In this document: one piece after another, positions 1 to 25,059 of the stretch | Position numbering within the stretch: position 1 is the first letter of the stretch | Layout: each line of letters starts with the position of its first letter | Source of the DNA: Candidatus Pacearchaeota archaeon | GTDB lineage: Archaea; Nanobdellota; Nanobdellia; Pacearchaeales; UBA284 | Length of the DNA stretch: 32,000 nt | Reading direction: 5' to 3' | Assembly (NCBI GenBank): GCA_026016245.1 | Contig: CP061211.1 | Coordinates: 30,001-62,000 of the forward strand | Notes under the pieces: model-generated | What the model saw: only the letters and a program-made list of their open reading frames with translations | Databases searched by the model: none | What the model was told of the DNA's origin: nothing | Translations under genes and position numbers: made by a program

Positions 1-1
1 A

Positions 2-1681
2 ACCCAACAAGCAGATTATATTTCAAATGATACTAGCGTTGCTTCTGTTTCAGCACTCGGCTTAGTTACTGGAATTGGAGATGGGACAGGAAAAATAACT
101 GCAGAATACACACATTCTGAGGTCACAAAAGAAGACTCTAGTATTGTTAATGTCAGATATTTTGAAGATGATTATATTAGATATATTAATCTGGCTTTAA
201 ATAAATATGAAATTGAAATAAATGAAGAAACAAGTTATGAAGTTAAGGCTTATTGGTCTAATGGTCTGACAACTGATATAACTTCTGAATCAGATGTTCA
301 GAGTTTAAATCCAAATGTTGCTTCTGTAAATCAAAATACTCATAGAGTTAAGGGAGAGGATGAAGGAATAGCCATCATAAATGCTAGCTATATTCATAAT
401 AATCTTCCTTATGGAGATGAAAAATTTATAATTGTTACTGGAGAAGCAGTTGGAGAATATAATCTTTCAGTTGACACATGTGGAGATACATCTATTCCAC
501 CAGATGGAGATTGTGAAGATTTTATTAATGTGAAAGGTGAAATAACTGTTAATCAAGAATCTTGGGGCATTGCACCACAAGAAAGATTCCCACTTCCTTC
601 AGATAATTATAGAGTTTCTTTTGGTCCTCTTCAGGATTGGTATGAACCTGGGGAGATGTCAGTATTTTTGCCTCCAAATGTTTCTTTGATGGGTATTTAT
701 ACTAAAGAGCCTGTGGAGTATGCTCTAATAATTGTCCAAGCTAAAGATGAACAGACAGGACAATTTATCAATGCTTTAATTAACTTATATCTTGAAGATG
801 ATCTTGTTAATTCTACTATAAATGATGTGAGATATAATTATTCAGAGACATATCCTATTGAATTCACAGCTGAATTTGAAGACCAAAGTGGTTACATTAC
901 ACCATCTAATTTAACAATAACAATTTATGGAAATGGAATTTATTTCTTTACAGTTTATTATGAAAAAGAAGCAGTTGGAGAATGTTTCTGTGAACCAAAG
1001 CATGTTCCTTGTGGTTTTTGTTATGATTTTTATTCTGAATGTGATGGCCCTCCACAAGGACCTGGACAAATAATTCCTTGTTCACCTGGTTGGATATGTA
1101 ATTATGTGACAGGAAAATGTCAACCAACTTCAACCCAAGATGAGTGTCATGATAATGCTACTACTTGTAATATTATCACTGGTTGTTATTGGGATTATCC
1201 AGACATCCCTCCTCCTTATTGTAAACATTGCCAAACAGAAGGTCCTGAAACATGTTCAGGTTATGATAATCAGGGAACTTGTAATTTAGATCCTTGTGTT
1301 GTCAAGAATGTTGGTTGTCCTTCTGGTGCTAGTGACTGTAGATGTGAATGGGAAACTGATGAATGTATTCTTAAATATCAACAACAAACAAATGGAGATT
1401 TTTGTGAGATAACTTTAAGACAGGGGACTTGTGAAGAAGGTTGCCAAGGAAAAATAAATTATAGATGGCAAAATTATACTTGTGATCCTGGTTCATGTTC
1501 AGAACAAGCTTGCGTGGATTTAACCTATCCTCCCCCAGATTATACAAAATCAGAATGTGTGATTTGTCCGACACCTTTTAGAGAGCTTCCATTTTTTTCA
1601 TGGTGGAATATTTTAGCTGTTGTGTCTGTATTGATAGTGTTTTATATATTCATGCTTAGAAAAAAGAGAATTAATTATTAA
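2..1681 (+). CDS. Surface protein, 5'-truncated by the window edge: two Big_2-type Ig-like domains, a beta-rich spacer, a cysteine-rich stalk and a C-terminal TM anchor
   Basis: Frame 2 is open from base 2, so the ORF-track GTG at 530 is not the true start. Translation of 2-529 gives SNDTSVASVSALGLVTGIGDGTGKITAEY and SLNPNVASVNQNTHRVKGEDEGIAIINASY, the Big_2 signature. From CFCEPKHVPCGFC to SECVICP I count 28 Cys. The C-terminus WWNILAVVSVLIVFYIFMLRKKR is a TM helix plus basic stop-transfer. Confidence 0.8.
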   Translation, partial: TQQADYISNDTSVASVSALGLVTGIGDGTGKITAEYTHSEVTKEDSSIVNVRYFEDDYIRYINLALNKYEIEINEETSYEVKAYWSNGLTTDITSESDVQSLNPNVASVNQNTHRVKGEDEGIAIINASYIHNNLPYGDEKFIIVTGEAVGEYNLSVDTCGDTSIPPDGDCEDFINVKGEITVNQESWGIAPQERFPLPSDNYRVSFGPLQDWYEPGEMSVFLPPNVSLMGIYTKEPVEYALIIVQAKDEQTGQFINALINLYLEDDLVNSTINDVRYNYSETYPIEFTAEFEDQSGYITPSNLTITIYGNGIYFFTVYYEKEAVGECFCEPKHVPCGFCYDFYSECDGPPQGPGQIIPCSPGWICNYVTGKCQPTSTQDECHDNATTCNIITGCYWDYPDIPPPYCKHCQTEGPETCSGYDNQGTCNLDPCVVKNVGCPSGASDCRCEWETDECILKYQQQTNGDFCEITLRQGTCEEGCQGKINYRWQNYTCDPGSCSEQACVDLTYPPPDYTKSECVICPTPFRELPFFSWWNILAVVSVLIVFYIFMLRKKRINY

Positions 1682-1711
1682 ATTATTTTTTCCTGGTAAA
1701 AAAGAGGTGAA

Positions 1712-4390
1712 ATGATAAAAAAAGAAGGAGTGATTTTAGTATTAGTATTTTTTATTTTATGTTGTTCTTTTAGTTCTGCTTCTGTTATTCCTGGAAATCC
1801 TTTTTTTAATTTAAGTCAAGGAAGTTTTGGTCCAGGCCAAGTTCTTGAGGGTTATTTTAACTTTTCTTTGGAAAATGAACCTGGTAATATTATGGTTAGC
1901 GGGCAAGTTGCTGCTGAGATGAAAGAGATGAATCTTCTTGATTTTTTACAAGAAGGAGAAGTAGATTTTAATTGTGATCCTAGTGATTGTGATGTTACTT
2001 ACCAGGCATCGATTCCTTCCCAAACAAAGACAGTAGTTCTTAGTGAAGAAGAGAAGTATTTTGGTTTAGTTGCTTTTGGTACTAATCCCCAGATTTTGAA
2101 CTTAAGTTTTTATCTTACTGGACAAAGCACTGCTAATCCTATTTGTGGTGAATCTCCTTTGAAAATTGATTTGCTTGATGATGGCATTATAGATTATGAA
2201 TATAAAGAGCCAAGTGGAGAATGGTGTTCTGATTTAAGACATAGTAGATGTTATGATCCTTCTATTGCTACTGGTGTTTCTGTTTTAACTTCTACTCCTC
2301 TTTGCCAGAAAATTTCTCTGAATAAGACAGGAAGGTTAGAAGTTGCTGCTGAACTTAAAGTGTATAGTGGTGAACCTTGGGATTATGATATAGAATTTAC
2401 TGTTTATGATTTAGGTGGTAGTTTAATTGGAAACTGCAGTGTTGATTATTTTTATGAATTAGAATATAGTTTTGCAAAATGTTTTATAGGTCCTGAATTT
2501 CTAGGAGAGGAATCAACATTCTTTATTGAAGAAGCAGGTGATTATCTTCTTTGTATCAGGAATAAGGGAACAAGTAGTGCAGAATATTGGATTAAAAAAG
2601 AAACTCAAGAAGAGGTTTGTGGTTTTTATGGAGAGCCGCCTTCACAGACTTATAATGAGGATTATTCTATTTATGTTCATGAAGCTAAATTTAATGCTTT
2701 TACTGAGGAAGTTGTTTTTGATGAGAGCATGCATCTTGGTGATGTTCCTTTAATGACTTATGTCCAGAATTATATTAATTCAGAATATGGAGGTAATTGT
2801 ACTGGATTTAGTGGTTGTATTATTCCTATAAAATTTATTTCATCAGCTAGCCAGACTTTGACATTGAGTGATATCAACTTCAAATATCACCCACAAGGCA
2901 CTTCTCCAACTTATAATAATTATTTTTATGATTTGATTGTTGAGTGGCCTAAAATTGATATGGATATACAGACAGTTCCATTCTCTATTCTTAATCTTAG
3001 TGCGCCTGAACAGCCAGGTTTCCAGATGGTTTTAGCTAAGATTGGAATAGCTTCGAGAAGTCTTGGTTTTGATGTTGCAGAAGTCCCAACAATCCAAAGT
3101 GTTAGTCCTCTTATTGTAATTCCAGGAAAGCTAACAGAATTTAGGACTGTTGCTACTGCTCCAGCTGGCAAACAGATTATTCAATATAGATGGGATTTTG
3201 GTGATGGTTCAGGAGAGCAAATGACAGCTGGGCCTAATATAACACATACATACAGCCAGATAAAAACATATATTTTAACTGTCAAGGCTCAAGATACTTC
3301 TGGTTTGGTTGGTTCAAGAACTTTTACTATTACCAGCAATATAACCCGCGAACTTTTGAATACTACAATACAGAATTTAAGAATAAGATTGGATAATTTT
3401 GCTTCTCAGTACAATAATATTGAATATTGGTACAGAGATATGATTGGAGTGAATGTTACAATAATAAGCACAACCCTTGATGTTTTAGAATCTCAATTAG
3501 CTACAGCAACCCAAACACAGCTTCTTGATATTAAAAATGAACTTGATGCTTTGAATGTTCCAATATCTATAAATGATACTTTGGTTTTGAGAGATTCTCC
3601 TTATATTCCAAATTTAAATGAAATAGATCCAAGTTATGTTAGTGATATGACAGGAGAGGATTATGATTCAAATCTCAAAACAGAATATCAGAATGCTGTG
3701 GCTTTATGGCAGCAGGATAATGTTAATTTGAGATTAGGAGGAGAGGCAAAAGCTTTATTTTATGAAGATAGAATAGAAGATAAGATTACAGTTGTTAATA
3801 TAAAAGTTGATCCTCTTGTTGGTATTTCTAATGCTTATGTTATTTTCTCCTTGCCTTATGGTGTTAGTTACAATGATGTCAGATTACTGCATGATGCATA
3901 TGAAGTAAGTGATTTAAATGATGCTATTGGCTTTGTCTATACTGGCTTAAGTGGCTTGGAAACAATTAGTATAACATTGCCAGGCAAGGTTGATTTTTCA
4001 GATATTAATTTTTATATCTCACCTTCTCTTCAGGAAGTACAAGTAGGAGTACAACCTCTGACAGAGCCACCAAAGAAACCACCCTATCTTCTAGCAATAT
4101 TTTTAATAATTGTTATTGCGATAGTTGTCCTTATTATCTTATGGTTTATATGGAAAGGCTCTGGGAAAAGAGAGAAAAAGAAGCTGTTCAAGAATCCTAT
4201 GGATCTTTATCATATTACTAATTTTATTTCTAACAATCAAGCTGCTGGAGTTCCAAAAAACAAGATAATAGAGAGGCTGAAAAAAGCTGGTTGGTCAAAA
4301 AAACAAATAGATCATGCTTTTAAACAAATTGGAAAACAGAAACCAATTTTTACACCTTCAGTGAAAAGAAGACCCACAAGAAGAATTTAA
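1712..4390 (+). CDS. Secreted, membrane-anchored PKD-domain surface protein with many N-glycosylation sequons and a 78-aa basic cytoplasmic tail
   Basis: GAGGTG at 1704-1709 precedes ATG 1712. Sec-type signal MIKKEGVILVLVFFILCCSFSSASV. PKD signature IQYRWDFGDGSGEQMTAGPNITHTYSQIKTYILTVKAQDTSG. At least 12 N-x-S/T sequons by my count. TM YLLAIFLIIVIAIVVLIILWFIW, then a K/R-rich tail containing GVPKNKIIERLKKAGWSKKQIDHAFKQI. Confidence 0.85.
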   Translation: MIKKEGVILVLVFFILCCSFSSASVIPGNPFFNLSQGSFGPGQVLEGYFNFSLENEPGNIMVSGQVAAEMKEMNLLDFLQEGEVDFNCDPSDCDVTYQASIPSQTKTVVLSEEEKYFGLVAFGTNPQILNLSFYLTGQSTANPICGESPLKIDLLDDGIIDYEYKEPSGEWCSDLRHSRCYDPSIATGVSVLTSTPLCQKISLNKTGRLEVAAELKVYSGEPWDYDIEFTVYDLGGSLIGNCSVDYFYELEYSFAKCFIGPEFLGEESTFFIEEAGDYLLCIRNKGTSSAEYWIKKETQEEVCGFYGEPPSQTYNEDYSIYVHEAKFNAFTEEVVFDESMHLGDVPLMTYVQNYINSEYGGNCTGFSGCIIPIKFISSASQTLTLSDINFKYHPQGTSPTYNNYFYDLIVEWPKIDMDIQTVPFSILNLSAPEQPGFQMVLAKIGIASRSLGFDVAEVPTIQSVSPLIVIPGKLTEFRTVATAPAGKQIIQYRWDFGDGSGEQMTAGPNITHTYSQIKTYILTVKAQDTSGLVGSRTFTITSNITRELLNTTIQNLRIRLDNFASQYNNIEYWYRDMIGVNVTIISTTLDVLESQLATATQTQLLDIKNELDALNVPISINDTLVLRDSPYIPNLNEIDPSYVSDMTGEDYDSNLKTEYQNAVALWQQDNVNLRLGGEAKALFYEDRIEDKITVVNIKVDPLVGISNAYVIFSLPYGVSYNDVRLLHDAYEVSDLNDAIGFVYTGLSGLETISITLPGKVDFSDINFYISPSLQEVQVGVQPLTEPPKKPPYLLAIFLIIVIAIVVLIILWFIWKGSGKREKKKLFKNPMDLYHITNFISNNQAAGVPKNKIIERLKKAGWSKKQIDHAFKQIGKQKPIFTPSVKRRPTRRI
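3107..3337 (+). other. PKD domain-coding segment inside the 1712-4390 CDS
   Basis: PLIVIPGKLTEFRTVATAPAGKQIIQYRWDFGDGSGEQMTAGPNITHTYSQIKTYILTVKAQDTSGLVGSRTFTITS carries the canonical WDFGDG...H.Y...G.Y.V.L.V.D pattern. Confidence 0.8.
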
Positions 4391-4395
4391 TTTTA

Positions 4396-6660
4396 TTAAG
4401 AAGGTTTAGGAGCTGGAGGCAAAGGTTTTGGTTTTCTTACTGGTTTTATTGGCATTGGTTTTGGCTTTATAGGTCTGGCTATTGGTTTTGCAGGCATTCT
4501 TACTGGCCTTGCTGGAGCTCTTCCTGGTGGCATTCTTCTTACAGGCCTAGATGGCATCATTCCAGGAAACTCCAATTTGGGTTTGGCTGGTTTTGCTTTC
4601 TTCCTTTTTTTAATGGATAGGAATATTAAAACACCTAATCCTAAGACTAAGAAAATGATGAGAGTTGTTAGCCATGGGAACACACTTGGTTTTTTACATT
4701 TCCCTAAACAACATCTGCTTGTATCAGAAGCTTCAACAATTGTTCCGTCACAAGCAAGGCTAGCATTACAGGCAGTTCCTCCTAAAGACGAACATGAACT
4801 TAAACAGCTTCCATCAACACAACATCTCGTAGCCTCACTTGTCTCATACATTGTTCCAGAACAAATCTGTCCAGCTTCACAAGAAACACCAGGACAGGTT
4901 TTTGGAATACATTTCCCTCCTTGGATACAACAAGTTTGTTGGCCACCAGTATTAGCAGCCTCCACTAAAGTTCCGTCTTTACAATCCTCGTCACTAGCAC
5001 AAATCTCACCACCCATTACAGCGCAGGTTTGAGAACCTGTACAAAAACCTGATTCACAGCAATAATTTGTATCAGAAGCAACAATCCATCTGTCTGAAGG
5101 ACATGATTTTCCTTGACTAGGATCACAAATCTCTCCTCCAAGATCAAAACAAGTATCACTTGCTGTTGTGCAAACCCCTTTACAACAATAAGGAGTGTCA
5201 GCTGATACAATGAATGGAATTATATTACCAAGATTATCCAAACATTTCTGTCCAGAGCCGCAAATCTGGCCACCTATCTCATTAATACACATTGATTTAT
5301 CATAAGGTTTACAACATTTCAATCCTGGCTCACAGATATAAGGAACTTCAGTTTCATTGTCAGAACAAGAACTTTTACAAGAACCATATTTATCTTCACA
5401 TGACTGGGCAATATCACAACATTCACGATCTCCAAAACAAGCATAAGGTTGAGATATGCCACCACTATTACTGCAATTGATAACACAACTATATCCATAT
5501 TGCTCACATTCAGAAAGTAATTCTAGAGTCGGCCAAACTCCAAGAAGAATTAAAGCTGTATCACGAACATTATCGCAAGCTGATCCAGAACATTCCCAGC
5601 TTCCATCTTGTTTTTGTTCTTCTAATAATGTTTCTTTTGTCTTTTCAATATCTCCTGCCATGGCTTGGGTCATTAATACAACAAGAGCAGTATCATAATA
5701 TTTGTTAGAAGAACCTTGTCCAAGCCATAATCCATCAGCTCTTTGTAATGCTATTAGTTCTGAAATAAAACTTTGTTTTTTTGTTATTTCATAAAGGAAA
5801 GGTTGAGGCATATATTGCAGATTTTCATCATAATTTATTACAAGGTAAGGCATAAATGTTTTTGCTGTATTTATTTTTCCTTGCTTCATGAATGCATAAG
5901 CTGTCCATAAACTTGCTTCATAATCACATGATCCAAGAGTTGTGATACAAGAAGAATTCAAACCTATAGAAAGAAGTCCCTGAGGGCCAGCTTCTTCATA
6001 CAAGCCAGGAACATACCAATCATTTTCTTTCTTGAATAAAAAATTAGCTATAACACTTTCATTACAACTGACATTGAAAATTTTATCAGAACATTCTGGA
6101 CTAAGACTTAACCAATAATTTTCAGCTATTGTAAAACAAGATCCTGGATTGCCTCCTAATTTGTCTTCTTTATCAATACTAATTTCATAATCAGTATTAT
6201 CATAGAACAAAAGACAGCGGGCAGGAACATTGTTGGTTGTTAATTGCAAATACCAATCAATTCCAGTAGGCATGGCTGTCTTGTTTAATAGCCATTCATT
6301 TGCTTTTTCTGTGTCTTCTCCTATTGCATCAAGGGCAAGTTTTGCAAGAGCTGTATCTTTTGTTTTACAGTTTGGAGAAGGCCAGCATGTCTCATTTTCA
6401 AAGCTCTTGTCAATCAACTTTATTTTTGATGCTTTGGTTTGTGCAAGACTCATTTCATCTCGTAAAACAAGTAATGAGAAAACATGTTGTTCTATATTGA
6501 GATTTTGCCATCTTCCAATAGCTTTATTTTTTAACCAGAGATAAGCTCTTTTAATTTGTATTTTTTCTTGTTCTTGCTGAGCAGAGATTAAAAAAGAGCA
6601 TAAAAAAAGTATTAGAATAAATACTATAAATAATAGAGCAAAGCCTCTTTTCTTATTCAT
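4396..6660 (-). CDS. Surface protein: signal peptide, prenyltransferase/terpene-cyclase-like a/a-toroid repeat domain, seven tandem six-cysteine modules, TM anchor, Pro/Lys/Arg-rich cytoplasmic tail
   Basis: N-terminus MNKKRGFALLFIVFILILFLCSFLISAQQ. Two Q-x-x-DG-x-W repeats (LQRADGLWL, EQKQDGSWE) and repeated [KYR]DTAL helices (KDTALAKLAL, YDTALVVLM, RDTALILLG) typical of prenyltransferase/squalene-cyclase repeats. 42 Cys in aa 385-655 arranged as 7 modules, each with a CC doublet. TM WLTTLIIFLVLGLGVLIFLSI. Tail KPAKPKLEFPGMMPSRPVRRMPPGRAPARPVRMPAKPIARPIKPKPMPIKPVRKPKPLPPAPKPS. Confidence 0.85.
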   Translation of the reverse strand: MNKKRGFALLFIVFILILFLCSFLISAQQEQEKIQIKRAYLWLKNKAIGRWQNLNIEQHVFSLLVLRDEMSLAQTKASKIKLIDKSFENETCWPSPNCKTKDTALAKLALDAIGEDTEKANEWLLNKTAMPTGIDWYLQLTTNNVPARCLLFYDNTDYEISIDKEDKLGGNPGSCFTIAENYWLSLSPECSDKIFNVSCNESVIANFLFKKENDWYVPGLYEEAGPQGLLSIGLNSSCITTLGSCDYEASLWTAYAFMKQGKINTAKTFMPYLVINYDENLQYMPQPFLYEITKKQSFISELIALQRADGLWLGQGSSNKYYDTALVVLMTQAMAGDIEKTKETLLEEQKQDGSWECSGSACDNVRDTALILLGVWPTLELLSECEQYGYSCVINCSNSGGISQPYACFGDRECCDIAQSCEDKYGSCKSSCSDNETEVPYICEPGLKCCKPYDKSMCINEIGGQICGSGQKCLDNLGNIIPFIVSADTPYCCKGVCTTASDTCFDLGGEICDPSQGKSCPSDRWIVASDTNYCCESGFCTGSQTCAVMGGEICASDEDCKDGTLVEAANTGGQQTCCIQGGKCIPKTCPGVSCEAGQICSGTMYETSEATRCCVDGSCLSSCSSLGGTACNASLACDGTIVEASDTSRCCLGKCKKPSVFPWLTTLIIFLVLGLGVLIFLSIKKRKKAKPAKPKLEFPGMMPSRPVRRMPPGRAPARPVRMPAKPIARPIKPKPMPIKPVRKPKPLPPAPKPS
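4696..5508 (-). repeat. Seven tandem protein-level six-Cys modules (about 35-45 aa each) with an invariant CC doublet
   Basis: Examples: CFDLGGEICDPSQGKSCPSDRWIVASDTNYCCESGFCTGSQT, CAVMGGEICASDEDCKDGTLVEAANTGGQQTCCIQGGKCIPKT, CSSLGGTACNASLACDGTIVEASDTSRCCLGKCKKPS. Recurrent GG-x-I/A-C and [AS]-[DN]-T-x(1-5)-CC-x(3-5)-C. Confidence 0.85.
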
Positions 6661-6673
6661 AGTTCTCTAAGCA

Positions 6674-6700
6674 TTTTAATATTTAAAAAACTTTTTAAAT
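6674..6700. promoter_or_regulatory. Back-to-back A/T (TATA-like) boxes in a 45-bp divergent intergenic region
   Basis: TTTTAATATTTAAAAAACTTTTTAAAT. The complement of 6680-6687 reads TTTAAATA about 26 nt from the minus-strand ATG (6660). Plus-strand boxes sit about 26 nt before ATG 6706 and ATG 6721. No SD on either side, so leaderless transcripts are inferred. Confidence 0.4.
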
Positions 6701-6705
6701 GTCAG

Positions 6706-7500
6706 ATGATACTAAGAAATATGGATAGAGATAAAAGAGGACAGGTAACTCTTTTTATTATAATTGCTATTGTTATTGTGGCTGTTGTGATTCTAGCTAT
6801 TGTTCTTGTCCCACAACTTCTTCCTAGAGAAAGAATTCCCCCAACAGTACTTGATCCAGAAGCTTATATTGCTGATTGCGTTAACTTACATTTAGAACCA
6901 TTAGTTGAGGTACTTGCAAGTCAAGGAGGCTATTTGGAAACAGGAAATTGTATTTTTTATGAAGATATCTGCAGGCATTATTTATGTTATACTACTACTC
7001 CTTATATTAATTGCACTAATCAAGAACCTTTACTTAAAGAGCATGTTGAAGAAGAATTAAAAACTAAGCTGCAACAAGAAAATGTGGTTAAAAATTGTAT
7101 TTCTAGTTTTGCTGAAGCTGCAAGAAAACAGAATTGGAATGTTGAAGCATGCTCTGTTCCAAAATTTTCAGTTAATTTGACAGAAGGCAGGATTAATATC
7201 CCTATAGAGTGTGATATAACAATGTCTAAAGGACAGGAAGTTAAAAAATTTGAAGAACTTAATCCTTTTTTAAAATGGCCTTTGTTTGAATTTGTTATAC
7301 TTAGTAAAGAAATTATTAATGAAGAAATAGAAAATTGTGATTTTGATCCCTTAGCTTATATGACTATGCATTATCAGATTGAGATTGAGAAATTTAGAAC
7401 AGGCGATGGAAGTAAGATTTATATACTTCGGGAAAGAGAAACTGGAAAAGAATTTGTATTTGCTGTAAGAAATTGTGTGTTACCAGGAGGGGTATTTTAG
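6706..7500 (+). CDS. Cysteine-rich extracytoplasmic protein with a class III (type IV pilin-like) signal peptide
   Basis: N-terminus M(ILRNM)DRDKRGQVTLFIIIAIVIVAVVILAIVL is a short charged segment, then R-G-Q directly abutting the hydrophobic stretch, as in archaeal prepilin-peptidase substrates. 10 Cys in the mature part. Start could be ATG 6706 or ATG 6721; each has an A/T box about 26 nt upstream. Confidence 0.7.
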   Translation: MILRNMDRDKRGQVTLFIIIAIVIVAVVILAIVLVPQLLPRERIPPTVLDPEAYIADCVNLHLEPLVEVLASQGGYLETGNCIFYEDICRHYLCYTTTPYINCTNQEPLLKEHVEEELKTKLQQENVVKNCISSFAEAARKQNWNVEACSVPKFSVNLTEGRINIPIECDITMSKGQEVKKFEELNPFLKWPLFEFVILSKEIINEEIENCDFDPLAYMTMHYQIEIEKFRTGDGSKIYILRERETGKEFVFAVRNCVLPGGVF

Positions 7501-7501
7501 A

Positions 7502-10500
7502 ATGCCAAACAGGAAAAACAAAGGTGATATGGCAATAGCATTATTCCTTTCATTTTTGGCAGTAATGATGCCAGTGACCTTTACATCATTACAACCAGAA
7601 TTTACAGAAGAAGGAATAAAACAAAATTCTATCATTGAAACTTTCTCAGAAATAGTCTTATTTTTTGATCTAATTCCAAGTGTAGCTGCTTCTGATTATT
7701 TTGGATGCTGTGAAGAAACAAAAAATAAAGCTAAATGTGTTATAACTCTTGAGAATGAATGTAAGGTTAATAAATGGCATAATGGAACAGCTTGTGATAC
7801 TGTATGCCAGATAGGTTGTTGTATAGATAATGAAGGAATGTGTATTAAAAATTCTATAAATACAGATTGTCAACTTGGAACTTTTATTGTTAAGGATCCA
7901 AGTTGTGAACAGAGTCCTTTATGCAAGGAAGGTTGTTGTACAATTGGTTATCAAAAAAGATGGACAACAAATTTAACTTGTGTTAATGTTTATAATGGTG
8001 TTTGGGATAGTGCTGTTCCTGATTGGTTGACTTGTATTAAACAAGCTTATGAAGAACAGCATGGATGTTGTAAAAGTTATGCTGGTTGTGAGTATATTAC
8101 AGGACAAGAATGCCAGGGCAAATCAGGATATTTTTTCTCAAATATGAAGTGCTATGAGAATATTCCTGGCTGCGAGATTTGTCAATTACAGCCTACTGAA
8201 GGAAAATGTATAGAAGGTTTTCCTGATTTATACAAGACAGATAGTTGTGGGAATGTTTATAGTGATGAAATTAAAAAATATTGTACTGGTGGTTTTTGTA
8301 ATCCTGAGACAAATCAATGTGAATCTGGAGATTGTTTTAATATCTACAAAAATTATGTTGGTGGAGAATTTGGGCCTAAAGAATCTTCAGACAAAGCAAA
8401 AAGTGGTGAGGCTTGGTGTGTTTATGATACTCTTAGTGACTTAGGTAATGGAACAGCACCTGTAGGTTCACGACACTGGAGACGTTATTGTTTATATGGG
8501 CAAGAATATAATGAGCCTTGTGCAGATTACAGACAAGAAGTTTGTATGGGTTTTGGAGAAGGAGGGCAAGCAGAATATGCCAACTGTGCTCCAAATGGAT
8601 GGAGACTATGTGCTAATGTTACATCAAAAAATGAATGTAATGAGAATCCTTTCTGTTTCTGGTGGACAGATTTTGGTGAACAACATGAAGACCTAGGTCT
8701 TGGTAGCGGATTGAAAGATGCAATTGATAAAGTAGGTAATGATAAATGGCGTATTTTTGCTGAAGAAAAAATAGAATCTGGAAAAAGTAAAAGAGAGAAA
8801 GGAGACCCACAAATTTGTTTACCTAAAATACCTCCAGGCTATAGTGAACTTAATCAAGAGCTTGGTTGTGTTGGAGCTGGAAGTTCTATGTGTGTTTATG
8901 AAGAAGCTTGGTGGGGTTTAGATACAGAAAATAAAGAATGTCGTGATGATGAATGGCGTATTACATCTGCACACACATGTAGAAGTGTAGGAGATTGTGG
9001 AACTTGGTTTAATTGGGTTGGAGAGCCTATGTCTGGTTTTAGGATCATAGAAGTTGAAGAAGGAGATGTAGAAAGAGAGAAAAAAGAAATAATGATACCA
9101 CAAGCATATACTGATTTTGTTTCAGAACATATTAAAGGAGTAAAGGGAGCTGGTGGCTTAGGCCTCTTGAATATTTTTGCAGCTGCTTTTGTAGTTTGGG
9201 CTGGAGGTTATTTAGGAGTTGCAGTTTTAGATCTAGTTGGTGTAGACGTTTTTTTCAGTGGTGTACCTTGGGCAATGTTTAGTGTCAGTAAAGGATCATT
9301 AACTACAGCAGGTATAGTGGTTGGATGGTCTATTATAGCTACTGGAGTGATCTTAATTTTATGGTCTTTTTGGATTTCACCAGGAGCAAAACAAGGAGCA
9401 ATGCAATCAATTGGTGCTGGCCTTATTTCAGGAGGTGCTGCTGCTTTAGCAGGATTAACTGCTGTTCCTGCTGTACTTGTTGGCATTGTAATTGCTGGAA
9501 TTGCTGCTCTTTTATACTGGTTAGGTTATAGTAAGGAATTTTATTATCAACAATGTAATCCTTCAATGCCTCCTCTTAATGGAAATGACTGTCATCTTTG
9601 TAATGAAGATTCTGAAAGGCCTTGTTCTAAGTATAGATGTGAGAGTCTAGGAGCTGCCTGTTCATATAATGATACTATAACTGTTGGTGGTAAAACATAC
9701 CAGCTTGCAGATTCTGAATGTATAGCAACAATAAATGATGGTGCTCCTCCTTGGATTACTGAAATAGAGGCTTTTGACATGGAAGGAAGGAGTATCTTCA
9801 AAAGAACAGGATTAGGAACAATGCCTACAACCATCAATATTAATATGGGCGGCCAACCTATTCCTGATGGCACGCAACTTGTAATACAAATAAACTTGAA
9901 TGAAAAAGCATTTTGTATGTGGGATATTGAAAGCACAGCCAACATTGGAGAGATGGACTTCCCTTATCAAAGTTCTGTATTGCGGGATGAGCTAAGACAG
10001 CAATTCCTAGTGAAACAGGCTCTGCCACAATATTATGTAAGATGTGCTGATGTTTATGGCAATGCGAACATTGCAGAATACATTTTCAAATTTTCAACTA
10101 CAACAGGACCAGATTTAACACCACCAGTTATTTTAGGTACAGATAGAGATTATAATCCTTATTTTGGATATAGTGTTACTGAGCTTCCTTTATCTATTTA
10201 TATTAGTGAAGATGCTTTTTGTCGTTGGAACCCAGGACAGGACACTGATTATGAATTAATGTCACAAGAAACAGAATGTGAAACAGATATCACACCGACT
10301 GGATGGGAATGTGAAACAACCCTCACTGGCTTGCAGCCAGATATTGCAAATCCTTTCTATATAAGATGTAAAGACAAAAGTCCTCAAGAAAATGTTATGC
10401 CTAGCGGTTACCTTCTTACATTACTTCCTACACCGCCTTTATTAATCACTTCAATTGATCCAACAGATGGTTCTATAATTAAAGGATGCGAAGTTTCTGG

Positions 10501-11005
10501 TGTAGAACTTGAAGTTACAACTGCTGAAGGAGCAGATAATGGAATAGCTACTTGTTATTGGTCTAATGCTGATATTGGCATTGAACAAGGAATGACTAAA
10601 TTTACTGAAACTAATACTGTTATTCATAGACAGAACCTTTCTGCTATGAGCCAGATTGTTTACATCAAATGTCATGATTCTGCTTTAAATATAGCAAATA
10701 ATAGGACAAGCTTTACTGTAATTGTTGATACTTTCCCACCAAAAATAACTCGTCTTTACAAATCTGGTGGAAGTCTTATTTTAAAGACAGATGAGAATGC
10801 TGTTTGTGCATATCACTATAGTGCTGGCAGAAAAATACATAATTGTAATTTTGATCCTAAGGATACTCTCAGAGCAAGAAGGTTTGATACCACAGGAACT
10901 AAAGAACATAGAGTTTATGATGATGGAGAGCCTTGGCATGTAATATGTTATGATGAGTGTGATAATATTGGACAGTGTTTCGTAATATCTTCAATAGAAT
11001 CTTAA
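7502..11005 (+). CDS. Giant (1167 aa) polytopic surface protein: N-terminal anchor/signal, >40-Cys ectodomain with GCC modules, Gly/Ala-rich 4-helix membrane bundle, C-terminal ectodomain with four tandem Ig-like modules
   Basis: ATG 7502 lies 1 nt after the upstream stop, with GGAGGGG at 7487-7493 (preferred over the ORF-track GTG 7475). N-terminus MPNRKNKGDMAIALFLSFLAVMMPV. Modules FGCCEETKNKAKC, IGCCIDNEGMC, EGCCTIGYQ, HGCCKSYAGC. Hydrophobic block LGLLNIFAAAFVVWAGGYLGVAVL / AGIVVGWSIIATGVILILWSFWI / AMQSIGAGLISGGAAALAGLTAV / PAVLVGIVIAGIAALLYWLGY at nt ~9150-9530. Four C-terminal repeats follow. Confidence 0.85.
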   Translation: MPNRKNKGDMAIALFLSFLAVMMPVTFTSLQPEFTEEGIKQNSIIETFSEIVLFFDLIPSVAASDYFGCCEETKNKAKCVITLENECKVNKWHNGTACDTVCQIGCCIDNEGMCIKNSINTDCQLGTFIVKDPSCEQSPLCKEGCCTIGYQKRWTTNLTCVNVYNGVWDSAVPDWLTCIKQAYEEQHGCCKSYAGCEYITGQECQGKSGYFFSNMKCYENIPGCEICQLQPTEGKCIEGFPDLYKTDSCGNVYSDEIKKYCTGGFCNPETNQCESGDCFNIYKNYVGGEFGPKESSDKAKSGEAWCVYDTLSDLGNGTAPVGSRHWRRYCLYGQEYNEPCADYRQEVCMGFGEGGQAEYANCAPNGWRLCANVTSKNECNENPFCFWWTDFGEQHEDLGLGSGLKDAIDKVGNDKWRIFAEEKIESGKSKREKGDPQICLPKIPPGYSELNQELGCVGAGSSMCVYEEAWWGLDTENKECRDDEWRITSAHTCRSVGDCGTWFNWVGEPMSGFRIIEVEEGDVEREKKEIMIPQAYTDFVSEHIKGVKGAGGLGLLNIFAAAFVVWAGGYLGVAVLDLVGVDVFFSGVPWAMFSVSKGSLTTAGIVVGWSIIATGVILILWSFWISPGAKQGAMQSIGAGLISGGAAALAGLTAVPAVLVGIVIAGIAALLYWLGYSKEFYYQQCNPSMPPLNGNDCHLCNEDSERPCSKYRCESLGAACSYNDTITVGGKTYQLADSECIATINDGAPPWITEIEAFDMEGRSIFKRTGLGTMPTTININMGGQPIPDGTQLVIQINLNEKAFCMWDIESTANIGEMDFPYQSSVLRDELRQQFLVKQALPQYYVRCADVYGNANIAEYIFKFSTTTGPDLTPPVILGTDRDYNPYFGYSVTELPLSIYISEDAFCRWNPGQDTDYELMSQETECETDITPTGWECETTLTGLQPDIANPFYIRCKDKSPQENVMPSGYLLTLLPTPPLLITSIDPTDGSIIKGCEVSGVELEVTTAEGADNGIATCYWSNADIGIEQGMTKFTETNTVIHRQNLSAMSQIVYIKCHDSALNIANNRTSFTVIVDTFPPKITRLYKSGGSLILKTDENAVCAYHYSAGRKIHNCNFDPKDTLRARRFDTTGTKEHRVYDDGEPWHVICYDECDNIGQCFVISSIES
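9737..11002 (+). repeat. Four tandem ~92-125-aa beta-sandwich-like modules in the C-terminal ectodomain of the giant protein
   Basis: Each module opens with x-PP-x-I (APPWITEIE, LTPPVILGT, PTPPLLITS, TFPPKITRL). Each carries a paired-Cys signature C-x-[WY] ... [YH]-[VI]-x-C-x-D: AFCMWD...YVRCADVYGN; AFCRWN...YIRCKDKS; ATCYWS...YIKCHDSA; AVCAYH...HVICYDECDN. Confidence 0.75.
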
Positions 11006-11006
11006 A

Positions 11007-11825
11007 ATGAAAATGAAAAAAAGAAAAGCAGGAAAAAAGAAAAATATTTTTGATATTATTGGTATGAGTTTTAGAAAGTGGTGGTATAATTTTATTATTG
11101 TCTTGCCTTTTGTTTTTAATGCTGTTGCTTCTATTATTGGTATTCTTATTTTATTTTTAATCTTTGGTTTGCTTTTTATGGTAATTTTTGGTTTATCTCC
11201 TTTGGGTTTATTAGGAGATTTAGTTCTTTTAGGACAACTAGAAGGAGTAATTCCTGATTTTTCACCAGGAATTCTTATTTATCTTGCTCTTGTTTTCATT
11301 GTGATGATTTTAGTTCTTGAATTAATTAAGGCGTATTTCTATAGTGGTGGGATTGCCATGGCTTCTGAGATAGTTAGAGGAAAGAAAACAAGTTTAAGAG
11401 TTATGGATAAGAATGGATGGAAATTTTTATGGCGTTTTTGGATTATTGAGATTATTATTGCTCTTGGTGTTATTATCTGGTTATTTATTTTCGCACTGCC
11501 TTTTATTTTTACTCAAGACATATCCTTATTATCTATAATGGGTATAAGTGTCATACCTATGATGTTTGTTTATGTATTTTTCATTCTAGTTGAGTATTTT
11601 CTTGTTCTTGAAGATTTAAGTGTGTGGAAATCTTTTGAAAGAGGCATTTCTATAGTAAAAACTAATTATTGGGCAATGCTCGGTTTAGGTGTTTTATTTT
11701 TATTGATGACAGGTCTTGCTAGTTTTATTCCTTGGATTGGTGGTATCGCAAGTTTGATAATTTTTATTCCTTGCCAGACAATTGCTTTTGTTATTTTTGC
11801 TCTTAAGCGTGCATATCGACGGTAA
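11007..11825 (+). CDS. Polytopic integral membrane protein (at least six hydrophobic segments), translationally coupled to the giant protein
   Basis: ATG 11007 is 1 nt after the stop at 11005. Basic N-terminus MKMKKRKAGKKKN, then long hydrophobic segments (IIVLPFVFNAVASIIGILILFLIFGLLFMVIFGL, ILIYLALVFIVMILVLELI, FWIIEIIIALGVIIWLFIFALPFIF, and others). The family is not recognised with confidence. Confidence 0.75.
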   Translation: MKMKKRKAGKKKNIFDIIGMSFRKWWYNFIIVLPFVFNAVASIIGILILFLIFGLLFMVIFGLSPLGLLGDLVLLGQLEGVIPDFSPGILIYLALVFIVMILVLELIKAYFYSGGIAMASEIVRGKKTSLRVMDKNGWKFLWRFWIIEIIIALGVIIWLFIFALPFIFTQDISLLSIMGISVIPMMFVYVFFILVEYFLVLEDLSVWKSFERGISIVKTNYWAMLGLGVLFLLMTGLASFIPWIGGIASLIIFIPCQTIAFVIFALKRAYRR

Positions 11826-11900: not shown

Positions 11901-12542
11901 ATGCCAATAAAAATAATTAAGAATTTTTTCAAAAGAATATTTTATGGCATGTTTGCTACTAAGAAACATGTTAAATTAGGTTTTTATGGGCCTCCTAATA
12001 GTGGTAAGACTACTCTTGCTAACAGACTTTGTAAGGATTGGTTAGGAGAAGAGCTTGGAAAAACAAGCAGAGTTCCTCATGAGACAAGAGAAATACAGAT
12101 AAAGGAGAAAGTTGAGATAGATTTTAATGGAAAAAAGTTGACTTTTAAGCTAGTTGATACTCCTGGTATTGCCACAAGAATAGATTATGAGGATTTCTTG
12201 CATTATGGCATGAAGGTTAGAGAGGCTAAGAAAAGAGCTAAAGAAGCTACAAGAGGTGTTATCGAGGCTATAAAATGGTTAGATGACATGGATGCTGTCA
12301 TTATTGTTCTTGATACAACTAAAAATCCTTACACCCAGGTTAATATTACTATCATAGGAAATCTTGTTGCAAGGAAAATTCCTGTGCTTATAGTAGCTAA
12401 CAAGATAGATTTGAGAGGAGCAAGAGGAAAGATAAAAAAGATAGAGGCTGCATTCCCAGAATATGATGTTGTTGCTATAAGTGCAAAAAAAGGCAAAAAC
12501 ATGGAAGAGTTTTATGAGAATCTCTTTGCTCTTGTAAAATAA
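11901..12542 (+). CDS. Small archaeal GTP-binding protein, first gene of the GTPase/DUF2073/DUF2072 trio (OapA-like)
   Basis: P-loop GPPNSGKTT (G1), DTPG (G3), NKID (G4), SAK (G5). AGGAG at 11887-11891. Followed in operon order by DUF2073- and DUF2072-type genes. Confidence 0.85.
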   Translation: MPIKIIKNFFKRIFYGMFATKKHVKLGFYGPPNSGKTTLANRLCKDWLGEELGKTSRVPHETREIQIKEKVEIDFNGKKLTFKLVDTPGIATRIDYEDFLHYGMKVREAKKRAKEATRGVIEAIKWLDDMDAVIIVLDTTKNPYTQVNITIIGNLVARKIPVLIVANKIDLRGARGKIKKIEAAFPEYDVVAISAKKGKNMEEFYENLFALVK

Positions 12543-12552
12543 GAAGAAAAAA

Positions 12553-12969
12553 ATGGCAAAGAAAAAAATAAAAACAAGGAGAAGCGATAAAGGGATAACA
12601 ATACAATTCATCCCATATTCAGAAATAGCTTATCTCACTAGCTTTAGACGTGTGAAGAAGTTAGTTGATTTAGCTGTCGAGAACAAGATTTTGCTTGTTC
12701 AGGGAAAGCTTGCTCCTGAAGAGGAAGTTGACTTGATTGAGGAAACAATGAAACATATAGTTAAGAGTAAAAAATCAAAGTTTAGAGGAATTGAGTTAGC
12801 TACATTCTCACCGAGATCAAAAGAATTACCTTTTTTTACTTCAATGAAAGAGAAACTTGCAACAAGTTTATTTGGTGATAGAGATGTTATCACAGTTATT
12901 GGTCCTGCTACAATTGTCCGTGAAATTAAAAAAGATCCCACTAAGATACAACTCCTTTTAAGGAAATAA
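12553..12969 (+). CDS. DUF2073-family archaeal protein (OapB-like)
   Basis: ITIQFIPYSEIAYL...ILLVQGKLAPEEEVDLIEETMKHI...FRGIELATF matches my memory of the DUF2073 core (l.peEE..LIe.TM....F.GIE). It lies 10 nt after the GTPase stop. Confidence 0.7.
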   Translation: MAKKKIKTRRSDKGITIQFIPYSEIAYLTSFRRVKKLVDLAVENKILLVQGKLAPEEEVDLIEETMKHIVKSKKSKFRGIELATFSPRSKELPFFTSMKEKLATSLFGDRDVITVIGPATIVREIKKDPTKIQLLLRK

Positions 12970-12987
12970 TAAAAATAATAATTAAAA

Positions 12988-13419
12988 ATGCCTCATCAAT
13001 GTGTTCGCTGCGGAAGAATCTATGATAGTGCTGCTCCTGAAGTTCTAGAAGGCTGTTCTTGCGGTTCTCATTACTTTTTCTTCTTTAAGGATGAAGACTT
13101 GGCTATGCAAAAGGAAACTGAAAAGCTTACTAGAGATGAAAGAGAAGAGATTGTCAAGGATGTTAGTGAAATAGTCGGGCCAGATATAGAGAAGCCAATA
13201 ATCCTTGATTTAGAAAGTATCAGAGTACAGAAACCAGGAAAGTTTGAGATTGATTTGGTTAGAATCTTCAAGAGAAAACCTATTATATACAAGATAGAGG
13301 AAGGAAAGTATATCATAGATCTTGCATCAACTTTCCAGATGAAATTAAAGGAGAAAAAGATTGAAAAGTTAAAAAAGGTTGAAGTTCCAGAACCTAAAGA
13401 ATCTAAAGAAGAGGATTAA
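12988..13419 (+). CDS. DUF2072-family Zn-ribbon protein (OapC-like)
   Basis: MPHQCVRCGRIYDSAAPEVLEGCSCGSHYFFFF is the characteristic MPHxCxxCG...GC.CG..F N-terminal zinc ribbon. It has a K/E-rich C-terminus. Confidence 0.75.
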   Translation: MPHQCVRCGRIYDSAAPEVLEGCSCGSHYFFFFKDEDLAMQKETEKLTRDEREEIVKDVSEIVGPDIEKPIILDLESIRVQKPGKFEIDLVRIFKRKPIIYKIEEGKYIIDLASTFQMKLKEKKIEKLKKVEVPEPKESKEED

Positions 13420-16081: not shown

Positions 16082-17455
16082 GTGTTTAAAAAAATGAATC
16101 TTGGAAATTATGAGGCAGATAGGATAGGATATCTGAACAAATGCCACGAAACTGCCAAAATGTTATCTTACAGAGATTTAAGATTCTCCGCAGAAAGATT
16201 GGATATAAGGGATTTTGCTACCAGAGCAGGATCAATTCTTGAAGAAAGGAAAAAGTTAGAAGATTTAGTTAAAGAATTTCCAGAATTAGGGTGTTCTGTA
16301 AATGATCTTTTGGCGGAGGCAGAAAAGATGTGTATGGAAAAAAATAATTATATTAATCATGCTCCTTTTGAGTATTCTATACTTATGGAGGTAAAGGAGG
16401 AAAATGGAGACTCTTTAATTGAAGTTACACTTCCTATTTTTCTGAAAAGTAAAAAAAGAATGTTGCAAAAAAAATTAAATAGGGCCTTGCTTGGTGTTTT
16501 AGCTAAGAAAGATACTAATGATATAATCTCTGGAGATAATAAAAATCAATTTGTGAGTTATATTGTAAAATCTAAATCAAATTTAGTCTATGGGAGAGCT
16601 TTAGAAATTGCAGAGGAGTTAAAACAAAGACTAGATAGGCATCTTAAAAAAGAAAACCTGATATTAGAAAATATTTATTTTTTAAATAATGATTCAATTT
16701 CTAATTCAAAAAAGACGGGTGCTCTAGAAGAGAGAATACAAAAAACAGAAAGGGGAGTTGAGCAGGATTCTAGAGAGGAGACAGATGTCATAAAAATCAG
16801 GGGAGGTATGACTCAAAAAGAAATAAGTAGTATCTTAGGCATTAGCCAGTCTCTTTTGAGTAAGGTGACTAAAGAAAAATTCAAATCTCATTTAGTTAAG
16901 GGGCAAGGATATTCAAAAAAAATGTTGGATTATATTATAAAAAAAGCACAAGCTGGGATTTTTACAGAGGTTGAGGCAATGCAGAGAGTTGGTGACAATT
17001 TTGGAGAAATTAAAAGACAATTGAAAAAAGTAACTTATGACGGGACTTTATTTTATATTAAAAAAAGTTTAAGAAAAATTAAACTCAAGTCTGAACATAA
17101 AAAAATAAAACCTAAAGATGGAGATATTATTATTGAATCTGAAATTTCTAAAAAAGAATTCTTATCCCTTTTAGGATACAACCTAAATTATTTAAGTATT
17201 TTAAGAACAAAAAATAAAAAATATATGGAAAATATCCCTGCGTATGAAAAGAATCTTAAGGGTGCAACATTAACCTTTCTAATAACCCATGAACTTTTTG
17301 GAGTTCTAACTGAACATGATGCAATAGAAAAACTTGATGAGGATTTTGAAGAGTTTAAAGATAAGTTTGGGGGCTTAGTCTATAAAGGGCAAAAATATTA
17401 CATCAAAAAGAAAATCCGCCAATTTAAAAAATTAAAAAGAAAATTTAAAAAGTAG
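16082..17455 (+). CDS. Lysine-rich orphan protein with an internally duplicated HTH-containing module (putative nucleic-acid-binding protein)
   Basis: HTH-like MTQKEISSILGISQSLLSKV and its duplicate ISKKEFLSLLGYNLNYLSILR. Each is followed by TE.EA...(V/L).(D/E).F.E.K....(V/L).Y.G..(F/Y)YIKK..R..K.LK. The start may instead be ATG 16094 (MNLGNYE), since 16082 is GTG. Confidence 0.65.
   Translation: MFKKMNLGNYEADRIGYLNKCHETAKMLSYRDLRFSAERLDIRDFATRAGSILEERKKLEDLVKEFPELGCSVNDLLAEAEKMCMEKNNYINHAPFEYSILMEVKEENGDSLIEVTLPIFLKSKKRMLQKKLNRALLGVLAKKDTNDIISGDNKNQFVSYIVKSKSNLVYGRALEIAEELKQRLDRHLKKENLILENIYFLNNDSISNSKKTGALEERIQKTERGVEQDSREETDVIKIRGGMTQKEISSILGISQSLLSKVTKEKFKSHLVKGQGYSKKMLDYIIKKAQAGIFTEVEAMQRVGDNFGEIKRQLKKVTYDGTLFYIKKSLRKIKLKSEHKKIKPKDGDIIIESEISKKEFLSLLGYNLNYLSILRTKNKKYMENIPAYEKNLKGATLTFLITHELFGVLTEHDAIEKLDEDFEEFKDKFGGLVYKGQKYYIKKKIRQFKKLKRKFKK
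16790..17437 (+). repeat. Two ~100-aa tandem copies of an HTH + basic-tail module within the 16082-17455 CDS
   Basis: Copy A is aa ~237-336 and copy B aa ~349-452. Aligned ends: EVEAMQRVGDNFGEIKRQLKKVTYDGTLFYIKKSLRKIKLK versus EHDAIEKLDEDFEEFKDKFGGLVYKGQKYYIKKKIRQFKKLK. Confidence 0.7.
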
Positions 17456-24042: not shown

Positions 24043-24300
24043 TTACATCAATTCCTCATCCTCTTCTTGGCCCCAGTCATCAAATTCTTCTTGCTCTTCC
24101 CCTACTTCATTACCAAATATACTTTCTTCTTTTTTAGCCCAAGGCTTATCTGTTTCTTCAGATTCTTCAAGACTATCTTTTTTTTCCTTAAACCCTTTCT
24201 TTTCAACTTTAGCTACTTTTATTTTTCTCTTACTTGCTTTTGCTTTCTTTATCTTTGTTTTTCTTGCCTTTCTTGCTCTTGTTTTTTTCTTTCTTGGCAT
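24043..24300 (-). CDS. Small (85 aa) charge-bipolar protein: poly-basic N-half, acidic Trp-containing C-half
   Basis: MPRKKKTRARKARKTKIKKAKASKRKIKVAKVEKK ... EESEETDKPWAKKEESIFGNEVGEEQEEFDDWGQEEDEELM. GAGGT-AAG-ATG SD (complement of 24304-24308) and TTTATAAA at 24344-24351 support the minus-strand reading over the F-rich plus-strand mirror ORF. Confidence 0.6.
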   Translation of the reverse strand: MPRKKKTRARKARKTKIKKAKASKRKIKVAKVEKKGFKEKKDSLEESEETDKPWAKKEESIFGNEVGEEQEEFDDWGQEEDEELM

Positions 24301-24931: not shown

Positions 24932-25030
24932 TTACACCTCCTATTCAGAAAAATAGAGAATGCTATAAATAACTTTCTGTGAGCAAAAGAGGAAATCGTT
25001 GTCACTTAAAAGTAGATAGTGAACGAAAAC

Positions 25031-25038
25031 TTTATAAA
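25031..25038 (+). promoter_or_regulatory. TATA box (TTTATAAA, preceded by GAAAAC BRE-like purines) for the beta-barrel-like gene
   Basis: It starts 29 nt upstream of ATG 25060, and no SD is present. Confidence 0.5.
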
Positions 25039-25059
25039 TACAAAAAGCATTGGAAAAAT

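Follow-up and report, generated by a model that had tools for sequence, protein, structure and literature searches.

A Gene Module for Cysteine-Rich Surface Proteins With a Pilin-Like Partner in Pacearchaeota, Woesearchaeota and Nanoarchaeota

A Six-Gene Island of Disulfide-Rich Surface Proteins

Six consecutive genes, here called g1 to g6, open a 32,000-nucleotide (nt) stretch of AT-rich archaeal DNA (the window; about 32% GC) that belongs to a 710-kb contig of a Candidatus Pacearchaeota metagenome-assembled genome (MAG). Three of these genes, g3, g4 and g5, together form this genome's version of a gene module that is conserved across Pacearchaeota, Woesearchaeota and Nanoarchaeota, in which g4 (NCBI locus tag IB618_00180), a protein with a pilin-like N-terminus, is translationally coupled to g5 (IB618_00185), a surface protein with a cysteine-rich head. 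A look-up of the exact sequences of the window's g4, in its 264-amino-acid (aa) form, and g5 matched no record. A first-pass annotation, made from the sequence alone, had delimited six open reading frames (ORFs), all of which were re-called at the same positions (Table 1). The features on which it had based their linkage were also found in the sequence, namely the 1-nt spacers that separate g4 from g5 and g5 from g6, the Shine-Dalgarno sequence (GAGGTG) preceding g2, and the 45-bp gap between the divergent g3 and g4. The translational coupling of g4, g5 and g6 is thereby supported. A GGAGG sequence additionally lies 12 nt upstream of g5. The promoters of both g3 and g4 are presumed to lie within the divergent gap, which becomes 60 bp with the NCBI start codon of g4 at position 6721.

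Table 1. Genes of the island and the divergent intergenic region (window coordinates).
Feature	Coordinates	Strand	Description
g1	2-1681	+	truncated by the left window edge
g2	1712-4390	+	892 aa
g3	4396-6660	-	754 aa
g3/g4 divergent intergenic region	6661-6705	.	45 bp, AT-rich, TTTAATATTTAAAAA; sequence read directly
g4	6706-7500	+	264 aa; 259 aa from the NCBI start
g5	7502-11005	+	1167 aa
g6	11007-11825	+	272 aa

Cysteine makes up 4.40% of the residues encoded by the island, vs 1.21% in the 19 other window proteins of at least 100 aa. There are 28 Cys in the stalk of g1, 42 in the module array of g3, 10 in g4 and 43 in the first ectodomain of g5, so that the numbers given by the first-pass annotation (more than 40 in the case of g5) are exact on recount. 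When Cys within the signal peptides of g2 and g3 are left out, the totals are even in g2 (12), g3 (52), g4 (10) and g5 (64), which is what complete disulfide bonding of extracellular proteins would give. A hydropathy scan agrees with the earlier assignment of a signal peptide or N-terminal anchor plus transmembrane (TM) segments to every one of the six proteins and, together with Cys parity, places the Cys-rich parts outside the cell. Searches of Pfam and NCBIfam found no enzyme domain in any of the six, nor any match to a protease or surface-layer (S-layer) family, the S-layer models including PF05123 and PF05124. Collectively, these results support the view that the island encodes surface-exposed, disulfide-rich, non-enzymatic proteins.

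Conservation of the g3-g4-g5 Module

To follow the island across relatives, ORFs were called in 87 loci, the window included, and searched with hidden Markov models (HMMs) built from the six proteins. A g4 match was found in 87 of the 87 loci, the g5 head in 82, the C-terminal part of g5 in 73, and the toroid-like domain of g3 in 52; a g3-type gene is present in 40 of the 44 loci that extend at least 6.5 kb upstream of g4. Relatives of g4 occur in 273 species-representative genomes, and the best 80 of these are almost all labelled Pacearchaeota, Woesearchaeota or Nanoarchaeota. The g5 family is larger still, comprising at least 2274 clusters at 50% identity (E<=1e-30, full-library profile search), with homologues that all come from Pacearchaeota or Nanoarchaeia MAGs. 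Five loci that carry the g4/g5 module bear other labels, i.e., Dojkabacteria, Patescibacteria, "bacterium" or Bathyarchaeota (L017, L031, L053, L071 and L010). These are probably mis-binned or mislabelled Nanoarchaeia contigs, because several of them also carry archaeal PCNA or primase.

The linkage between g4 and g5 is tight. A g5-head gene directly follows 103 of 120 g4 genes and lies within two genes of 109, the commonest spacers being 1 nt and a 4-nt overlap. In the usual layout, a protein with g3-type modules, g3 and a fused primase (all three on the opposite strand) are followed by PCNA, g4, g5, four small genes, a small opposite-strand helix-turn-helix (HTH) gene and an S-layer gene. 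The four small genes are separated by 1, -7 and -4 nt, and at least three of the four families are present in 23 of the 25 loci with enough downstream sequence. In the window's subclade, g3 lies immediately beside g4, and the genes after g5 or g6 are oapABC. Both of these contexts thus keep g3, g4 and g5 together, with g3 remaining near g4 both when PCNA and primase intervene and, as in the window, when they do not. Homologues are therefore syntenic across relatives rather than scattered. Added to the lack of S-layer or protease matches in Pfam and NCBIfam and to the extracellular location of the Cys-rich parts, this means that none of the three findings named by the first-pass annotation as counting against its proposal was obtained. 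However, that annotation had also treated the six-gene island as one unit, and this did not hold: only g3, g4 and g5 are conserved together, while g2 is found in 9 of the 87 loci, g1 relatives in 3-4 and g6 in 3.

Pilin-Like N-Termini in g4 and Four Downstream Families

The N-terminus of g4 reads MILRNMDRDKRG followed by QVTLFIIIAIVIVAVVILAIVLV, with the pattern K-R-G-Q-V-T-L-F-I-I-I-A leading into a hydrophobic helix, beyond which come a linker rich in Pro and a 10-Cys alpha/beta domain. Across 55 homologues, K5, G7, Q8, T10, F12, I13, I14 and A16 show little or no variation. Both a hydrophobic helix of about 20 residues and, before it, a basic leader that ends in [KR]-[GA] are thus present, and the class-III-like signal that the first-pass annotation had read in this protein is borne out by the leader/helix pattern across the homologues. 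The four families encoded downstream of g5 in relatives (about 163, 316, 174 and 168 aa) share this organization, each showing a basic leader ending in [KR]-[GA], usually a Gln next, and then a highly conserved hydrophobic helix specific to the family. In g4 and in all four downstream families, the most conserved stretch of 20 alignment columns is the N-terminus, with an identity of 0.71-0.84 vs 0.50-0.64 overall. The small components of the module also all contain an even number of Cys. The family of about 316 aa alone accounts for 1610 clusters in a protein-database search. In the window, these four extra genes are not adjacent to the module, and g4 alone accompanies g5.

The AlphaFold2 model of g4 is confident (pLDDT 93.8) and consists of a helix (residues 6-33), a low-confidence Pro-rich linker (34-45) and a separate alpha/beta domain. 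Foldseek returned no match for it at E<=1e-3 in the PDB or BFVD, and no pilin was among the PDB hits. At the sequence level, the sole contacts of the g4 profile in the PDB are the N-termini of archaellins, at a non-significant E of 0.5. No relative of g4, of g5 or of the four downstream families was found in Pfam, NCBIfam or the PDB.

A second, reduced copy of the g4 pairing was noted in the same organism (sample DRR463595; L008, 8903-11774). Here, a 246-aa g4 paralogue (IB618_02155), which begins with the identical KRGQVTLFIIIAIVIVA, is separated by 1 nt from a downstream gene for a 343-aa secreted protein without a family match, and upstream of the paralogue lie a divergent gene for a 185-aa pilin-like protein and a gene for a 107-aa Cys-rich secreted protein.

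A Disulfide-Rich g5 That Occurs Fused or Split

The g5 protein begins with an anchor helix (residues 7-31), which is followed by the head, a region of about residues 65-520 (nt 7694-9061) with 43 Cys in GCC-type modules, and by four Gly/Ala-rich TM helices at about 549-675 (nt 9146-9526). Next comes a 6-Cys knot, PCSKYRCESLG (685-720), the most conserved element of the family, which precedes the C-terminal part with its four immunoglobulin (Ig)-like modules extending to residue 1167. The motif [YF]-x-[RK]-C-x-D occurs four times and backs the presence of four homologous Ig-like modules. An AlphaFold2 model (pLDDT 76) shows the anchor helix, a beta-rich Cys-rich head, four poorly modelled central helices and a C-terminal array of beta-sandwiches, for which Foldseek retrieved generic tandem Ig/FnIII arrays only. 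Sequence searches matched g5 to nothing in Pfam, NCBIfam or the PDB, and hence revealed no homology to PilY1 or related adhesins.

In relatives, g5 occurs either fused, as in the window, or as separate genes for its N- and C-terminal halves, and fused and split copies often stand in tandem, each behind its own g4. Cys numbers differ in parity between the two forms. Split N halves usually have an odd number (40 of 59; commonest 41 and 43), as do split C halves (35 of 40; commonest 21), whereas fused proteins usually have an even number (32 of 44; commonest 62 and 66); the window's g5 has 43 + 21 = 64. Since the halves are usually odd and the fused protein is usually even, one disulfide is predicted between the head and the Ig-bearing half. 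This would put both halves on one side of the membrane, the extracellular one, in agreement with the even number of central TM helices. The N-termini differ as well: most fused proteins and split C halves carry a pilin-like helix in which Gln or Glu stands near position +5 as counted in the presumed mature protein, and split N halves carry ordinary Sec signals instead.

The outline of g5, a large Cys-rich ectodomain followed by Gly/Ala-rich hydrophobic segments, also resembles that of a viral fusion glycoprotein, and gene pairs encoding a nucleotidyltransferase (MNT) and a HEPN protein are inserted in the operon of some relatives, between the g5 halves or among the pilin-like genes (L002 16732-17806, L027, L036 and L077). 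Both observations would suit viral or mobile-element cargo, such as an entry or fusion protein encoded by a provirus. However, no g4 relative was found among the 2.9 million viral contigs of IMG/VR, no g5 match in phage records, and no structural match to g4 among the predicted viral proteins of BFVD. In addition, the chromosomal context is stable over hundreds of species, and neither an integrase nor a tRNA gene flanks the island. A viral origin is accordingly rejected as extremely improbable.

g3 and the Accessory Genes

The third member of the module, g3, opens with a signal peptide, after which come a domain of about 350 aa, an array of six to seven modules (each with 6 Cys in about 40 aa and the pattern C-x3-GG-x-C ... 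CC-x4-C), a TM helix (657-686) and a Pro/Lys-rich cytoplasmic tail. The first-pass annotation had seen a toroid repeat in the 350-aa domain. A weak similarity to the squalene-cyclase/prenyltransferase repeat was indeed detected, but the match to SQHop_cyclase_C (22.9 bits) lies below the cut-off of 26.1 bits, covers residues 300-365 only and is of a type seen in just 2 of 40 family members, and a g3 family profile found nothing in the PDB. Flp1_like matches in 10 of 40 g3 relatives were disregarded, being sub-threshold and located on the C-terminal TM helix. A recurring CC-x(3-6)-C motif had also been taken as a sign of modules shared by g3 and g5. Although g3 contains the motif six times and g5 contains it twice, no protein of the g5 family is matched by an HMM of the g3 modules even at E<=10, and the idea of shared modules has been dropped. 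In most relatives, g3 is adjoined by a secreted protein of about 424 aa that bears g3-type Cys modules (L027 636-1910 and 36 other loci); it is not found in the window, where g1 and g2 occupy that side.

The remaining genes are local accessories confined to close relatives, g1 and g2 being lineage-specific and g6 sporadic. The window holds the C-terminal 559 aa of g1, and a contig of the same organism (L007) extends the protein to at least 1069 aa. Two Big_2-like domains and a beta-rich region are followed by the 28-Cys stalk (residues 328-522) and a C-terminal TM anchor (528-555). The Big_2 match scores 26 bits, or 31.7 on the longer copy, vs a Pfam cut-off of 22.8, and the second Big_2-like domain is backed by a two-stretch match to teneurin-like chains in the PDB. 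The parts of g2 are a signal peptide, an N-terminal domain with 12 Cys, a PKD domain (459-541), a TM helix (787-819) and a short cytoplasmic tail. Its PKD_4 match reaches 46.5 bits vs a cut-off of 27, and it matches collagenase PKD domains in the PDB with E of about 1e-6. The adhesion-type folds listed by the first-pass annotation are thereby upheld, Big_2 and PKD by scores above the Pfam cut-offs, the second Big_2-like domain by the match to teneurin-like chains, and the four Ig-like modules of g5 by the AlphaFold2 model, the Foldseek hits and the fourfold motif. Finally, g6 is a polytopic membrane protein of family DUF7847 (35.3 bits vs a cut-off of 28.7), with about 76% of its residues inside hydrophobic segments. 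The loci with g2 all belong to the window's own subclade, and those with g6 are the window, L009 and L012; a distant DUF7847/GPDPase_memb gene lies inside the operon in one other lineage (L004-L006).

The restriction of g1, g2 and g6 to close relatives, and the generic nature of PKD, Big_2 and Ig-like domains as adhesion folds, would be compatible with a loose collection of unrelated adhesins, i.e., six independent neighbours with no shared structure or function. For the island as a whole this is very unlikely, and for g3-g5 it is contradicted by the evidence presented above: the g4/g5 coupling with its 1-nt spacers in 103 of 120 cases, the retention of g3 beside this pair in two contexts, and the Cys parity that links the two halves of g5.

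Genomic Setting: Replication Genes, S-Layer Genes and Glycosylation Genes

Directly after the island, the window encodes the origin-associated proteins OapA (a GTPase), OapB and OapC (11901-13419), followed by PAC2, ArgRS, a MiaB-like radical SAM enzyme, TrmB, IleRS and glycosylation genes; no tRNA or Rfam RNA was found in the window. In most relatives, PCNA and a fused PriS/PriL-like primase adjoin the module instead of oapABC. The surface module thus stands beside replication genes in both arrangements and is perhaps close to the replication origin. Further downstream, a GT2 glycosyltransferase with a GtrA-type membrane domain adjoins a PMT_2 protein mannosyltransferase (27484-29897), and this pair provides candidates for the glycosylation of the island's surface proteins. 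Four ORFs of about 210-457 aa (16082-17455, 24979-26349, 26791-27426 and 29894-30589) have no Pfam match at E<=0.001, and an 85-aa, Lys- and acidic-rich ORF (24043-24300, minus strand) lies within an otherwise empty gap of 460 bp.

In 15 of the 16 relatives with enough sequence, the module is followed by an S-layer gene (PF05124; S_layer_C at 33.8 bits vs a cut-off of 23.9). Its product is an S-layer protein of the Methanococcales type with a very conserved start, ...AAANYPAPFV..VAIVYGTG (L063 17504-19966 and 18 other loci). The HTH gene that lies between the module and the S-layer gene, on the opposite strand, encodes a 117-aa protein of the HVO_A0114 type.

The main rival of the filament-related interpretation discussed below is that the module is a housekeeping scaffold of the envelope: a fixed membrane complex that anchors or organizes the S-layer and the space beneath it, with the N-terminal helices acting as plain anchors that pack on the TM helices of g5, and with neither filament machinery nor specific host contact. 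The adjoining S-layer gene, the wide and strong conservation, and the housekeeping neighbours (PCNA, primase, oapABC and tRNA synthetases) are all in line with such a role, as are the four TM helices of g5, the g4 fold, which is not pilin-like, and the lack of a filament ATPase, platform or peptidase in any locus examined. However, plain anchors would not need the [KR]-[GA]-Q leader that five separate families keep directly before the helix, and the window's subclade keeps g3-g4-g5 without an adjacent S-layer gene. Moreover, the S-layer anchors known to us are less elaborate than a 43-Cys head with four Ig modules. On balance, we consider the scaffold a doubtful explanation, if the strongest of the rivals.

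A few kb upstream of g3, 20 loci encode a secreted ComEA-like protein (HHH_3, E 3.5e-8; e.g., L065 2757-3425). Together with the presence of five pilin-like families in one operon of relatives, this could be read as pointing to a ComG-like pseudopilus for the uptake of DNA or nutrients, that is, a short retractile fibre with g5 as its membrane base or receptor, in an organism unable to make its own nucleotides. Yet the ComEA-like gene sits inside a block of long-range synteny with housekeeping genes, and its proximity is weak evidence for that reason. DNA-binding and channel domains are absent from all six proteins, no retraction ATPase was found in the loci examined, and the window has neither the ComEA-like gene nor any of the four additional pilin-like genes. 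A function in uptake therefore seems highly improbable.

A Possible Filament-Related Complex Displaying the g5 Head

The interpretation that we favour, though tentatively and at somewhat less than an even chance, is that the module specifies an extracellular complex related to type IV filaments, which displays the Cys-rich head of g5. In such a complex, g4 would bind the head, and a single disulfide would tie the head to the Ig-bearing half of g5. The conserved N-terminal helices, i.e., those of g4 and, in most relatives, of g5 and the four additional pilin-like proteins, would assemble in the manner of type IV (pseudo)pilins. The resulting short stalk or tip complex could keep the g5 head level with the S-layer or outside it, where it would serve adhesion or contact. 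g3 may act as a co-conserved partner or as a ligand-binding component of the same surface structure, and the adhesin-like g1 and g2, along with the membrane protein g6, would be lineage-specific additions. The working mode would resemble that of complexes in which minor pilins and a large adhesin form a tip, although the module shows homology to no such complex.

Several observations weigh against this interpretation. First, a filament ATPase, a platform protein and a prepilin peptidase are all absent from the window and from the conserved neighbours. Second, the four TM helices of g5 would hold the protein in the membrane, which fits poorly with its becoming part of a growing filament. Third, the pilin-like character of the components is not mirrored in known families or folds: g4 has no match to a pilin, archaellin or class III model in Pfam or NCBIfam at E<=0.1, nor do representatives of the four downstream families at E<=0.05, and the g4 model is not the "lollipop" of pilins, lacking a continuous helix packed on a beta-sheet. 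Fourth, the window's subclade departs from its relatives in that the four extra pilin-like genes are not adjacent and the N-terminus of g5 has lost the conserved polar residue. Lastly, long-range synteny with housekeeping genes weakens adjacency as evidence beyond the tightly coupled genes, and the filament-type and host-contact roles are proposed on the basis of sequence and predicted structure.

As to host contact, the breadth of the core, its conservation and its housekeeping neighbours are no less compatible with basic envelope machinery than with a host-specific apparatus, and for these reasons the core is not singled out as host-specific machinery. Host contact may still be involved, above all in the case of the variable g1 and g2. 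A bolder version of the filament-related complex can also be envisaged, in which g4, g5 and the four additional pilin-like proteins would build a hitherto unrecognized envelope organelle restricted to Pacearchaeota, Woesearchaeota and Nanoarchaeota. Here, pilin-type helices would form a fixed stalk that has its root in the TM helices of g5, carries the disulfide-locked 43-Cys head through the S-layer and serves as the general host-contact structure of these episymbionts, with g3 as a partner and g1 and g2 as lineage-specific specificity factors. Taken as a whole, this scenario is unlikely.

Significance

Few uncultured archaea are as abundant as Pacearchaeota and Woesearchaeota, and we know of no account of how they build their envelope or attach to a host. 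The module defines a compact, linked set of extracellular protein families across this group, g5 alone representing thousands of clusters at 50% identity, and these families, which carry no annotation and lack both a Pfam model and a solved relative, provide targets for antibodies, cryo-electron tomography, complex prediction and metaproteomics. Specific predictions are also obtained: the leader would be cleaved before Gln, g4 would touch the head of g5, and a disulfide would join the two halves of g5. If the pilin-like reading is true, the components of type IV filaments would extend to a membrane-rooted display complex unlike known pili.

Comparison With Known Systems

The first-pass annotation knew of no described system of this composition, and none was found in the literature searched, which included surveys of archaeal dark matter, of membrane-protein gene neighbourhoods and of type IV filament systems. 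One predicted archaeal secretion or membrane complex, centred on arCOG01314, comprises a flavodoxin-like anchored protein, a MoxR ATPase and vWA proteins (PMC5898192). Like the module described here, it was predicted from gene neighbourhoods alone and includes membrane or secreted proteins with Ig-like domains and S-layer-type proteins. Nevertheless, the two differ in composition, since the flavodoxin-like protein, the MoxR ATPase and the vWA proteins are all missing from the window.

Another point of reference is provided by the SPEARE proteins, giant surface proteins of Nanohaloarchaeota that reportedly combine protease, adhesion and nuclease-type domains and are said to have been proposed for host contact. 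Compared by description only, g5 resembles them as a very large surface protein of DPANN archaea for which a role in host contact can be proposed, but it belongs to a different lineage and has no enzyme domain.

Archaeal type IV filament systems and proteins with class III signal peptides, such as Epd, Aap pili and the bindosome, have been surveyed (bioRxiv 10.64898/2026.04.22.720090; PMC6393860), and some DPANN pilins were found to be too divergent for standard models (PMC6393860). The pilin-like proteins of the module share with the Epd, Aap and bindosome proteins a short basic leader, Gly or Ala at -1, Gln at +1 and a conserved hydrophobic helix. Unlike them, they do not match the curated models, and the core of ATPase, platform and peptidase is absent from the locus. 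The g4 model also differs from archaeal pilins in having a flexible linker where these have a continuous helix packed on the sheet.

A parallel in organization is offered by tip complexes made of minor pilins and a large adhesin, as in FimU/PilVWX with PilY1 in type IV pili, and GspH-K in type II secretion. The differences are substantial: no sequence or fold similarity to these complexes is seen; in place of a beta-propeller, g5 combines four TM helices with a 43-Cys head and Ig modules; and the locus encodes no ATPase or platform and, in the window, g4 only, without the other four pilin-like genes. The likeness lies instead in the set of components. As in these complexes, several small co-transcribed proteins carry conserved pilin-type helices, one of them being much larger than the rest (about 316 aa here), their genes stand together with that of a surface protein exceeding 1000 aa, and the presumed role is to present an adhesin at the cell surface. 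Among relatives, four or five pilin-like genes accompany the large surface protein, itself not a pilin, in 23 of the 25 loci with enough downstream sequence; in the window, it is accompanied by g4 only.

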